A program made the translations under genes and the position numbers. From NCBI GenBank assembly GCA_014435945.1, contig GCA_014435945.1_4088.1: DNA of 64,000 bases. One strand, written 5' to 3'. The stretch comes from a phage. The notes beneath the pieces are model-generated. The model was not told the DNA's origin, did not search any database, and saw only the letters and a program-made list of their open reading frames with translations. Below are positions 29,300-40,086 of the stretch, piece by piece (positions within the stretch are counted from its first letter, which is position 1; every line of letters begins with the position of its first letter).

Positions 29300-32200
29300 T
29301 TAAGCAGTACGTTGTGCAATGAACAAATCAGTAACTGAACTTACACCATCATAAATTACTTGGTAAATGGTCACGCTACCAGCAGTTTTGTTTAGTTCAC
29401 CATCAACAACAGCATAAGTACCATCAGTTGTAAAGTTTCTGTTACCAGTTGTATCTTGTTTAACATAGATGTATACTGATGCAGCTTTACCACCACCAAT
29501 TAGGCCAGTAATTGGAGCCAACGTGGTATCTTGGTCTAGAGTGATGAAGTATACGTTACTTGTACCATCTGGAGTCCATGTTCCGGTTGGAGCAATTACT
29601 GATGATGTAACTTGAGTTGGGATTACATCATACTTTTTGGTAGTTACTGTTGTAGTAGTTAAGTTAGCATTAGTAGTGGTTAGTTCACCAGTTACTGTTA
29701 CTGCCTTATCAAACACAGCATTTTCTTTAAATGATGAAGTTGCATTAACGGTTAGAACGTCAGCCGCTGCGTCACCTAATGTTACGTTACCATTCGCAGT
29801 TAGTGCTCCTGTTACTGCTAGTGTTCCACCTACTGTTGCGTTACCAGTAACGGATGCACTTGCAAGTGTAGCCAAACCTGATGTTGTAATTGTAGAAACG
29901 GTTGTTGCACCGAATCCAGCAGTACCAGTTGCAGAGATATTACCACCTACTGTTAGGTTACCAGCAGTGATACCAACAGTACCAGTGATGTTTGCACCAC
30001 TTGACATAGTTACTGCACCACCAAATGAACCAGTAGTAGTAACTTCTAAAGTATTACCTTTAAGCAATCCAGTTGCAGTGATAGAAGTACCAGCAGTAAT
30101 TGAAGTGTTAGCAGTAATTGAAGTGCCAGCCGCTACGTTGTTAGTTGCAGTCAAAGACTTAACAGCTACATCGGAATCTGCTTGGTTCAATTGTGCATTT
30201 AGTACACCAGTAACAGTAAAGTCACCGTTGTTTACAACGTTACCATTAACGATTAGGTTGTTGTTTTGTGAACCGACTTCACCAATTGTTGCAGAACTTG
30301 AAATAATTGCCGCACCAGCAGTAATATTACCAGCAGAAGATAAAGAATCGGATGCTATTACTGCAAACGGTTCTAGTGTTTGTCCACCAACATCGATATC
30401 TGCGTTAATACCACCTTCAACACGTAGTTTACCAGCAATATAAGTGTCTGGCATAATCTGTACAGTTTCAGGCTGCTCACCTAATGGTGTACCAACTGTT
30501 AGAGTTGCACCAGTTTTAACAGAACCTAGTGTTGTTTGACCAACTACACCTAGTGTACCACCAACGGTTGCGTTGTTAGTTACTGCTAGACCAGTTCCTG
30601 AACCATTCAAGGTTGCAGATGGAGCAGTTACTGCACCAGAAGTTAGTGTTCCACCAATTGTTGCTAAACCAGTTACACCTAATGTTCCACCAAGGGTAGC
30701 ATTACCTGTCGCATTTAATGTTTCAGATAGAGTTAGTGTTTTAGCAGAGATATCTGCACCAGTTAGATCTAAGCTACCAGGAGTTAGTGTTCCAACTACA
30801 GTTACATCGTTACCAAATGTCGCAGCACCAGTAACGCCAAGAGTAGTACTGAAAGAGCCACTTGTTGCAGATACACCAGAAGTTACGATAGAACCAAGTG
30901 ATGCTTGACCAGTTACTCCTAATGTACCACCAATAGTTGCATTATTAGTTACTGCTAGTGCAGTACCAGTACCGCTTAGGGTTGCCGATGGAGCAGTTAC
31001 TTCACCAGTTACACCTAATGTTCCACCTACTGTTGTGTTACCACCAAAGGAAGCTGCACCATCAGAGTGAATAGTTTCAGATACTGACAAACTCTTAGCT
31101 GTAATGTCAGCAGTTGTTAGGTCTAAACCACCTGCTGGTGTGAATACACCTTCAACAGTTACATCGTTGTCAAATGTAGCTGCACCAGTAACATCCAATG
31201 TAGAACTAAATGTACCAGTACTACCCGATACAGCACCGGAAACCAATGAACCAACAGTTGTTACACCAGTAATATTCACAAGACCAGTTACAGTCAATGG
31301 ACCTGAAGATAATGAGCCAGTTACACCTAATGTTCCACCAACGGTCGCATTGTTAGTAACACCCAAACTACCAGCATTCACTGTGCCAGATGCAGTAACA
31401 TCAGTAGTACTAACACCACCACTTAGTGTGCTTAGGCCAGTTGCAGTGATGGTTGAAGCAGTTGCAAGACTATTAGCAGAAATATCTGCACCAGTTAGGT
31501 CAATACCACCTTGTGGAACCAATTCACCTTCAACTGTTAGTTTCTGAACAGTACTATCACCAGATACATTTAAGGATGCAGCACTTAGTGCAGCTACTGT
31601 ACTTTGACCAGTTACATTTAAAGTGGTGTTTACTGTAGTGTTGTTTAAAGTTGTATCACCGGATACTAATATAGCGTTGGTATTGATACCACCAGCATCA
31701 ACTTGAATACCACCAGTGCTTACAGTTACTTTCTTGCCGATATTTACGATATCAGTTAGGGTAGTTGCACCAGTTACTGAAGCAGTACCTGCGACTGAAA
31801 GGTTTCCAGATACGGATGGGCTACCAGTTACAACACCAGTTGTTAGTACTAGGTTACCACCAACGGTAGTATTACCAGAACTAGCAAGGGTAATTGCTGA
31901 AACATTGGAAGAACTTAAATCAATTGAACCATTAACAACTAGGTCACCACCAATTGTAGCACCTTCAGTAGTACTTAGGGATTTAGAACTAATATCGGTA
32001 GTACTTAGGTCAATTGCACCAGGGGTCAATGTCCCAGATACGGTCAGATCACCAGTAATAGCAGCACTTTTCGCAATTGCAATAGTATCATTGGTAGAAG
32101 TAATATTATTAACACTTAATATACCATTAATGTTTGCATTATTGTCAACACGTAAACCTTCACCAACTGAATTTAGTACAATACTTGTAGCTGTTACTTC

Positions 32201-40086: not shown

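Follow-up and report, generated by a model that had tools for sequence, protein, structure and literature searches.

The window analysed here is a stretch of phage DNA of 64,000 nucleotides (nt) from GenBank assembly GCA_014435945.1 (contig GCA_014435945.1_4088.1), whose minus strand carries two very long neighbouring genes, termed A and B, between positions 29300 and 40086. With a probability of about 0.85, A and B are paralogous tandem copies of the gene that encodes the long tail fibre in Asteriusvirus jumbo phages, and they recombine through their shafts and carry two old types of C-terminal tip. The evidence for this interpretation consists of discrete near-identical tracts shared by the two genes, of patches copied in both directions in different relatives, and of whole shaft modules that were gained or lost.

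29300-35020, minus strand: fibre gene A, open reading frame (ORF) of 1906 amino acids (PHROG 4549, E = 3e-205; PDB 9cuy_g, E = 8.5e-30)
35170-40086, minus strand: fibre gene B, ORF of 1638 amino acids, the upstream paralogue (PHROG 4549, E = 3.3e-183; PDB 9cuy_g, E = 1.1e-27)

PHROG 4549, matched by both proteins, is annotated 'tail fiber protein'. The sole solved relative of A and B is chain g of the phiTE baseplate structure (9CUY/9MJN), a putative tail fibre of 793 amino acids, which is matched in its central region and in its C-terminal domain of about 110 residues. Aligned with HMMER, B matches 9cuy_g from chain residue 207 onward and A from about residue 212. A tblastn search with the fibre sequence yielded matches in 230 phage records, and most of those listed are annotated as tail fibre. 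Pfam and NCBIfam searches did not match either fibre to any family, and a match to the beta-helical Bactofilin family stayed below the threshold (E = 0.003). This match and the composition of the repeats are the only indications, apart from the phiTE homology, of a trimeric, extended beta-helical fold with a globular C-terminal domain. Orthologues have been detected in virions by mass spectrometry, namely the single-copy gp256 of phAPEC6 (180 kDa; 15 peptides; PMC7247149) and CBB_226 (10 peptides). The two genes themselves were already mentioned in the literature and deposited as ORF310 and ORF311 of phage BF17, while no account of the A/B paralogy, the two tip types, the conversion tracts or the TH47 fusion described below was found in the searchable literature.

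Near-identical tracts between the two fibre genes

A BLASTP comparison of A with B returned 59% identity over 1325 amino acids, and in the codon alignment the two genes are identical at 67% of the amino acids and at approximately 70% of the nucleotides. Three tracts stand out from this background. One of them had been noticed in a preliminary description of the window, which was made from the letters of the sequence alone; T1 and T2 are two further tracts beyond that list.

30069-30274, minus strand: tract T3 in A, the tract noticed before, with exact matches of 38 nt and 80 nt to B
35897-36084, minus strand: tract T3 in B, partner of 30069-30274
30107-30125, minus strand: extra hexapeptide unit in A, 18 nt plus one mismatch, third TSITAx copy
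32328-32403, minus strand: tract T2 in A, exact over 76 nt and with sharp borders
37415-37490, minus strand: tract T2 in B, partner of 32328-32403
33606-33679, minus strand: tract T1 in A, exact over 74 nt
38513-38586, minus strand: tract T1 in B, partner of 33606-33679

The exact blocks of T3 pair 30069-30106 with 35897-35934 (38/38) and 30126-30205 with 35936-36015 (80/80). Beyond these blocks, positions 30206-30300 are still 84% identical to their counterpart, and in the flanks the identity drops to 57-72%. The borders of the tracts are sharp in views restricted to variable sites. With exact matches of 80, 76, 74 and 38 nt, the strongest similarity lies in discrete identical tracts. The near-identical tract of the preliminary description exists, but the 24-nt tandem duplication by which its two copies were said to differ is an indel of 18 nt, corresponding to one TSITAx unit. 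Gene A reads TSITAN-TSITAG-TSITAT where B reads TSITAG-TSITAT. Every A allele has the extra unit, and B, 121Q and TH47 lack it. It is an old difference in hexapeptide copy number and not a fresh duplication.

The significance of the tracts was assessed at the level of synonymous codon choice. Among the 1050 codons that specify the same amino acid in A and B, a fraction of 0.63 is identical, and this fraction served as the background. The longest runs of identical codons comprise 26, 26 and 24 codons, one in each tract. In a permutation analysis with 20,000 shuffles, P was 0.002 for the longest run, and no shuffle reached the second or the third run. Within the three tracts the amino acid identity is 100% and the fraction of identical synonymous codons is 0.87-0.97. 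Phage 121Q, which has one fibre gene (gp571, 1841 amino acids) in exactly this syntenic position, is just 65-84% identical to T1-T3, which argues against a genus-wide constraint on the DNA of these tracts.

Exchange between the genes across relatives

Escherichia phage Turkey3 is 99.7% identical to the window over the fibre region of 10.8 kilobases (kb). Phages BF17, WPEC3, WPEC5 and CMSTMSU are 97-99% identical to the window in this region, and fEgEco12, EC.P1, Ecwhy_1, vB_Ec-M-J and TH47 match it in a patchier manner. All these relatives are jumbo myoviruses with sizes of 350-386 kb that belong to the genus Asteriusvirus (121Q/PBECO4 group) or stand close to it, and by these matches the window is part of a jumbo coliphage of the Asteriusvirus (121Q/PBECO4-like) kind. 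To follow individual segments through the clade, 17 genes from ten phages were placed in a codon alignment, which was read in windows and at variable sites.

Two segments changed their allele type in different lineages and in opposite directions. In T3, the A genes of the window, Turkey3 and BF17 read TSITANTSITAG, which is identical to B-type DNA, whereas the other five A alleles read TTLSAGTAITAG and differ at many synonymous positions. Judged by these alleles, T3 is a B-to-A patch specific to the lineage of the window, Turkey3 and BF17. The second segment lies immediately downstream of T3 in gene B.

35695-35895, minus strand: segment of B with diverged B-type sequence in the window; A-like replacement in fEgEco12, WPEC5 and EC.P1

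In this segment (approximately 35895-35695) the identity between B and A amounts to only 55-74% in the window, Turkey3 and BF17. Over alignment columns 5520-5760 the B genes of fEgEco12, WPEC5 and EC.P1 are 89-94% identical to the A gene of the same phage, compared with 55-74% between A and B of the window. In the same columns B of the window and B of fEgEco12 are merely 56-70% identical, while A orthologues are 93-98% identical. The B genes of fEgEco12, WPEC5 and EC.P1 also gained the 18-nt TVGITA hexapeptide (6 amino acids) of A, and this gain accounts for the occurrence of B in two lengths, 1638 and 1644 amino acids. On these identities, approximately 230 nt of B are overwritten by A-like sequence in these three phages, an exchange in the A-to-B direction.

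Phage TH47 (MT446416; locus L010, 8001-12959) has a single fibre gene of 1652 amino acids. This gene was scored at 1199 positions where the A genes and the B genes of the clade are each invariant but differ from each other. Up to window position 36037 it has the B allele at almost every one of approximately 1,000 diagnostic sites, and from position 30052 onward there follow 182 consecutive A alleles. The first 4.05 kb or so are B-like and the last 750 nt, approximately, are A-like. The switch between 36037 and 30052 places a B::A junction inside T3, and the gene is probably the product of a deletion that fused B to A.

Further differences follow the repeat structure of the genes or are confined to short segments. 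The shaft modules of 170, approximately 155 and approximately 118 amino acids differ in number between genes and phages, with length differences of exactly 170, 117 and 236 amino acids; the A gene of phage JNE01 has a third 170-amino-acid module, and a 53-amino-acid N-terminal segment is missing only from A of the window's clade. JNE01 has exact A/B tracts of its own elsewhere, one of 89 nt at gene position 925 and one of 44 nt at position 136. The window and Turkey3 differ at 30 positions over 29300-40086, all of them in A, and 27 of the 30 fall within approximately 530 nt (31874-32405), mostly in module II of A. At these positions the window agrees with most other phages, and the variant is carried by Turkey3 and, for nearly all alleles, by BF17. 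Given this clustering, the differences at 31874-32405 are a recombination patch and not scattered mutation.

The preliminary description had proposed recombination or gene conversion between the copies, and the comparison of ten relatives directly demonstrates it through the two-way lineage-specific patches, the TH47 fusion of B to A, the gain and loss of modules and the Turkey3 patch. All conversion tracts that were seen sit in the shaft and end approximately 175 amino acids before the C-terminus. Both genes are intact in seven of the nine two-gene phages of the clade, and synonymous changes outnumber non-synonymous changes among orthologues.

Several observations weigh against the proposed interpretation or narrow it. 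The B gene of WPEC3 has a third haplotype in the segment that was replaced in fEgEco12, and for some patches neither the donor nor the direction is fixed. At several sites the A-like segment of fEgEco12 B is closer to the window-type A than to the A gene of fEgEco12, and patches that fit the A gene of another phage indicate that part of the mosaic stems from exchange between co-infecting phages. Tracts T1 and T2, which are common to most of the subclade and differ at many sites from the A allele of vB_Ec-M-J, are older conversion events and give no evidence for conversion that is 'ongoing', the word used before. The TH47 record is unannotated and flagged UNVERIFIED, and a short-read collapse at the identical tract could give the same fusion. 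The alignments of A and B to 9cuy_g leave the N-terminal helical docking bundle of phiTE (modelled residues 14-171) unmatched. Finally, an AlphaFold2 prediction for the last 140 amino acids, built from an alignment of three sequences, failed to give a reliable tip structure, with a predicted local distance difference test score (pLDDT) of 40.5.

The most serious alternative is that the mosaic arose only by exchange between orthologues in co-infecting phages, the likeness of the paralogues being left over from their duplication. Tail-fibre loci are known hotspots of recombination between phages, for example in large vibrio phages (PMC12028318), and besides the third WPEC3 haplotype the 530-nt patch in A of Turkey3 and BF17 is approximately 5% different from all other A alleles and has no evident B donor. 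But tracts inherited from the duplication should have diverged like their flanks; instead they are 97-100% identical next to flanks of approximately 70%. Moreover, the B segment of fEgEco12, WPEC5 and EC.P1 has a clear A-type donor (89-94% identity, against 56-70% to the orthologue), and the TH47 gene joins B to A. Allelic exchange certainly adds to the picture yet cannot replace exchange between the paralogues, and as the sole explanation it is improbable. Exchange within one genome and exchange during co-infection are indistinguishable by sequence in a replicating pool of phages.

It is considerably less probable that the tracts were kept by selection on the DNA or RNA, for example as a regulatory element, an RNA structure or a local codon preference, with no copying between the paralogues. 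Such selection would fit the presence of T1 and T2 in nearly all phages of the subclade, and a constraint at the protein level is real for T1, the peptide of which is conserved as far as phiTE. The low identity of the tracts to 121Q and the many differences of T1 and T2 from the vB_Ec-M-J A allele argue against it, as does the lineage dependence of T3 and of alignment columns 5560-5790, where alleles switch as blocks together with an 18-nt indel. The TH47 chimera also finds no account in such a constraint.

Slightly weaker still is the view that the mosaics and size variants reflect short-read mis-joins or the collapse of two 5-kb repeats that are 70-100% identical. The records of TH47 and CMSTMSU are both flagged UNVERIFIED, the fibre genes of CMSTMSU are shattered into approximately 14 ORFs, and B of vB_Ec-M-J is split in two; an artefact may apply to TH47, to CMSTMSU and perhaps to the split B gene. 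For the remainder it is contradicted by the same two-gene layout and gene lengths in independent isolates from the Czech Republic, Poland, Thailand, Finland and China, by patches that are grouped in a phylogenetically coherent way with reading frames open across them, and by identical stretches of at most 80 nt, which is below a typical read length. Programmed diversification by a diversity-generating retroelement or by an invertase-driven shufflon that switches fibre ends can practically be dismissed: near-identical tracts in a receptor-binding-type gene superficially resemble template and variable repeats, but mismatches in and around the tracts have no adenine bias, the tracts lie in the shaft and not in the C-terminal tip, all repeats are direct (28000-41500 contains just one inverted pair, of 31 nt and with 71% complementarity), the two genes themselves have the same orientation, and in the flanks, as opposed to the whole genome, no reverse transcriptase or invertase is annotated within approximately 12 kb (BF17) or 8 kb (121Q).

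Two of the records show further irregularities. In vB_Ec-M-J (locus L009, 3313-14349 and 15382-17524) gene A encodes 1988 amino acids with a strongly diverged middle, gene B falls into ORFs of 1749 nt and 3150 nt, and the adjacent gene for the colanidase tailspike also consists of two pieces; these splits are frameshifts, pseudogenes or sequencing errors. In CMSTMSU (MH494197; locus L006, 1501-12279) most of the ORFs covering the two fibre genes are annotated 'flagellar hook-length control protein FliK'. This record is a low-quality sequence, and its misleading names may spread through databases.

Gene architecture, tips and surroundings

Both proteins are very long and rich in threonine, glycine and valine, and consist of a shared N-terminal region, a modular shaft and a C-terminal domain of approximately 160 amino acids. 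The resemblance of starts, ends and upstream motifs that had been pointed out for the two genes was found at all three places. Both proteins start with MYSIKTDLD... and the first 120 nt of the genes are 78% identical. The ends are shared more weakly, ...IYQVIYDGVSSVTDLFIAQRTA in A and ...IIQVIYDGFSTVFDTFVAQRV in B, with 59.5% identity over the last 160 amino acids. Upstream of each gene stands an identical motif of 24 nt, AACTAAATATA[A/T]GTATATTAACAA, whose role as a promoter is putative. It has only these two matches in the 64 kb of the window, where none is expected by chance, and it is kept upstream of the fibre genes of relatives, with two mismatches in 121Q and three before B of JNE01. 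Promoter activity of this conserved motif is plausible.

35067-35090, minus strand: 24-nt motif upstream of A, putative promoter element, 47 nt before the ATG
40131-40154, minus strand: 24-nt motif upstream of B, putative promoter element, identical copy
35127-35151, minus strand: terminator-like hairpin followed by a T run, just past the stop codon of B, which would separate two transcription units
40163-40195, minus strand: hairpin (stem of 9 base pairs, loop of 9 nt) with a T run behind it, located upstream of the B motif

The hairpin at 40163-40195 was read by eye because its loop exceeds the length limit of the scanning program. The same order of elements precedes each gene, namely a terminator-like hairpin, the 24-nt motif, a GGAGGG ribosome-binding site and the ATG, and A and B would form separate transcription units.

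The internal repeats of the shafts were found by a chunked search, as a BLASTP self-comparison gave only the diagonal.

33659-34693, minus strand: module I in A, two copies of approximately 170 amino acids (residues 110-454)
38566-39645, minus strand: module I in B, two copies of approximately 170 amino acids (residues 148-507)
31856-33070, minus strand: module II in A, three copies of 150-160 amino acids (residues 651-1055), which holds the internal repeats noticed before
30512-31582, minus strand: module III in A, three copies of approximately 118 amino acids (residues 1147-1503)

Module I of A contains an exact intragenic match of 67 nt (34009-34075 and 34519-34585). The direct repeats listed in the preliminary description are present within module II, where 31955-32060 and 32435-32540 are 89% identical and 32435-32540 and 32885-32990 are 79% identical. 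Module III occurs three times in A, once in B (an indel of 236 amino acids) and twice in 121Q (an indel of 117 amino acids), and the 236-amino-acid gap accounts for most of the difference in length between A and B.

The C-terminal ends of the two proteins would be the receptor-binding ends, as their homology to the last 110 residues or so of the phiTE fibre 9cuy_g suggests (the alignment is shown for B).

29303-29782, minus strand: tip of A, last 160 amino acids, presumed receptor-binding end, A type by its pattern of orthology
35173-35652, minus strand: tip of B, last 160 amino acids, B type, diverged

Over the last 160 amino acids A is 92.5% identical to 121Q gp571 and 70% identical to A of JNE01, and B is 71% identical to B of JNE01, compared with the 59.5% between A and B. 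JNE01 (OR670491; locus L012, 4175-15562) belongs to a more distant Asteriusvirus lineage and has two tandem fibre genes of 2120 and 1628 amino acids; the two-gene arrangement was likewise detected in Turkey5 by tblastn. These identities across lineages indicate that the two tip types are old and orthologous. The B-type tip was found only in two-gene phages, where its identity is 86-100% for the Turkey3/fEgEco12 group and 62% for JNE01 and Turkey5, and a scan of IMG/VR for B-type tips returned nothing above 44% identity. A homologue search with the tip found one true homologue, a partial E. coli record (P0001), and the other eight matches share only the shaft motif TLGDAAADxLTVxGTATF. In the N-terminal 70 amino acids the two genes of JNE01 are 91% identical to each other, versus 67% for the pair in the window, and this likeness in JNE01 is local concerted evolution.

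An origin of the pair by stacking of alleles from single-copy phages was considered and rejected. As no phage with a single fibre gene has the B-type tip, and as an orthologous A/B pair is present in JNE01 and Turkey5, an old duplication is likelier than recent stacking.

The large ORFs on the plus strand inside the two genes had been dismissed as shadow artefacts, and this holds. All of them lie in one antisense frame with 23-26 stops, compared with 125-189 stops in the other two antisense frames, and their length is not conserved (548, 348 and 281 amino acids in relatives). Among the substitutions between A orthologues, 96 of 132 fall on the third codon position of the minus-strand frame.

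The names given to these genes in databases vary. Fibre genes of relatives are labelled 'gp34-like', 'FliK', 'YadA', 'colanic acid-degrading' or hypothetical, and none of the tests run here supported the GenBank names 'long tail fiber proximal subunit', 'FliK', 'YadA domain' or 'colanic acid-degrading protein'. The PDB holds fragments of T4 gp34. The GenBank name 'long tail fiber proximal subunit', which refers to T4 gp34, was examined by a PDB sequence search at E<=1, and the search returned phiTE alone; the gp34 name appears to be an annotation carry-over. As A and B are paralogues and each bear the C-terminal end domain of their own family, they would more likely be alternative whole fibres than serial segments, such as the proximal half of a jointed fibre with gp35/36/37-type partners.

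The surroundings of the fibre genes form a tail module, which encodes a tail sheath, a gp15-like sheath completion protein, a baseplate wedge subunit, a colanidase-type tailspike, several virion structural proteins and a structural protein of 3333 amino acids. Directly downstream of A lies a single gene with a DUF4376 domain, one copy for two fibre genes, and its product may be a fibre accessory or assembly factor.

28453-29232, minus strand: downstream gene of 259 amino acids, DUF4376 domain (E = 6.7e-9), weak match to a PHROG annotated 'tail fiber protein'

A tailspike-like protein of 713 amino acids, encoded two genes upstream of B (41119-43260, minus strand), matches PHROG 6117 (colanic acid degradation) and has a weak pectate-lyase-type match; with it the module would contain a second type of protein for host recognition. 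The 3333-amino-acid ORF (52517-62518, minus strand) is covered from end to end by a match to PHROG 10938 ('virion structural protein'), and its counterpart in phAPEC6, the 382-kDa gp245, was found in virions. An HNH endonuclease gene (22432-23841, plus strand) and a DprA-like/DUF2493 gene (24843-25436, plus strand) lie 4-7 kb from the fibre genes, and a link of these genes to local recombination is possible.

Proposed function and comparison with known systems

The two genes and their internal modules are similar enough to undergo homologous recombination while the phage replicates or when phages co-infect a cell. Three kinds of product result. Short non-reciprocal patches of approximately 70-250 nt are placed in the shaft by gene conversion in both directions, unequal crossing-over adds or removes whole modules and hexapeptide units, and an occasional deletion probably fuses B to A. 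Because the conversion tracts stop before the tips, two different tips are kept on partly homogenised shafts. Selection would keep the tips apart while recombination homogenises or resizes the shafts. A and B would be alternative receptor-binding fibres that give the phage two specificities, and both fibres probably attach via their similar N-termini. An influence of the exchanges on host range, raised in the preliminary description, is conceivable. Only a TH47-type fusion, if real, changes which tips a phage carries.

A more specific function can be put forward only as a speculation that is rather unlikely to hold. A and B could be the hairy whiskers on the tails of phAPEC6, fEgEco12 and CBB instead of the short fibres of the baseplate, or the flagellum-binding adhesins of the genus, or both, with tips that would recognize different flagellar or surface variants. 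The 793-amino-acid phiTE fibre has a predicted length of 512 Å (PMC11972413), and scaling by its rise per residue would make A approximately 123 nm and B approximately 106 nm long. In CBB the tail hairs measure 119 ± 10 nm and the baseplate fibres 28.6 nm; similar hairs are present on phAPEC6 and fEgEco12, and no gene product has ever been assigned to them. A citation in PMC11895373 reports, second-hand, that the Asteriusvirus SHEFM2K is flagellotropic, and phiTE, the source of the closest solved homologue, is a flagellotropic myophage (PMC11972413). If the whisker or flagellum assignment were true, recombination between the paralogues would keep remodelling these shafts.

Tail fibres decide which bacteria a phage attacks, and jumbo phages of the genus Asteriusvirus have been proposed for therapy against pathogenic E. 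coli. That part of the genus carries two recombining long fibres with different tips bears on the annotation of genes that are variously labelled. It also bears on the quality control of assemblies, where 5-kb repeats invite collapse, and on engineering, where the identical tracts offer natural crossover points for tip swaps. The pair provides a clean and small example of concerted evolution that is confined to the shaft while the tips remain divergent. It reveals no new mechanism and is a well-documented new example of a known process in an under-described family.

The nearest known counterparts are the single-copy fibre genes 121Q gp571 and phAPEC6 gp256 and those of PBECO4 and of Rak2-like jumbo phages (e.g. 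CBB_226), which occupy the same slot, flanked on one side by the DUF4376 gene and on the other by the structural gene that neighbours the colanidase. The single-copy Asteriusvirus fibre has the same N-terminus, the same types of module and, with two mismatches, the same 24-nt upstream motif as the genes of the window. In contrast, the window, approximately ten other isolates, JNE01 and Turkey5 have two tandem copies, the second with a B-type tip, and the numbers of modules differ.

The fibre of phiTE (Vequintavirinae; 9CUY/9MJN chain g) is similar in its central region and its C-terminal 110 amino acids or so, with E values of about 1e-28 to 1e-30. The long tail fibre of phiTE is described as a trimer with a highly extended beta-helix (PMC11972413), and chain g is inferred from its length to be this long fibre and not a third fibre. 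A and B are 2-2.4 times longer than the phiTE fibre owing to their repeated shaft modules.

Mosaic tail-fibre genes are a classical theme in phages of the T-even, P2 and Mu types. Mosaic recombination at the gp37/gp38 locus of T-even phages was reportedly described by Tetart et al. 1998, and mosaic phage tail-fibre genes are said to have been the subject of Sandmeier 1994 and Haggard-Ljungquist et al. 1992. Common to T-even-type mosaics and the genes of the window are short conserved stretches that act as crossover points, a patchwork fibre gene and host-recognition parts that are exchanged or retained. The partners in T-even-type mosaics are mostly alleles in different phages, whereas in the window they are paralogues and modules within one genome, and the exchanges of the window homogenise the shaft while those of the T-even type swap the adhesin.

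A further parallel is found in the paired lateral tail-fibre paralogues LtfA and LtfB of the T5-like phages DT57C and DT571/2, for which Golomidova et al. 2016 reportedly showed a branched attachment in DT57C. Like A and B, LtfA and LtfB come from neighbouring paralogous genes, resemble each other in their N-terminal parts and differ in their receptor-binding ends, and LtfA/LtfB provide two specificities per virion. They differ from A and B in having no detectable sequence relationship to them and in belonging to a siphovirus architecture.

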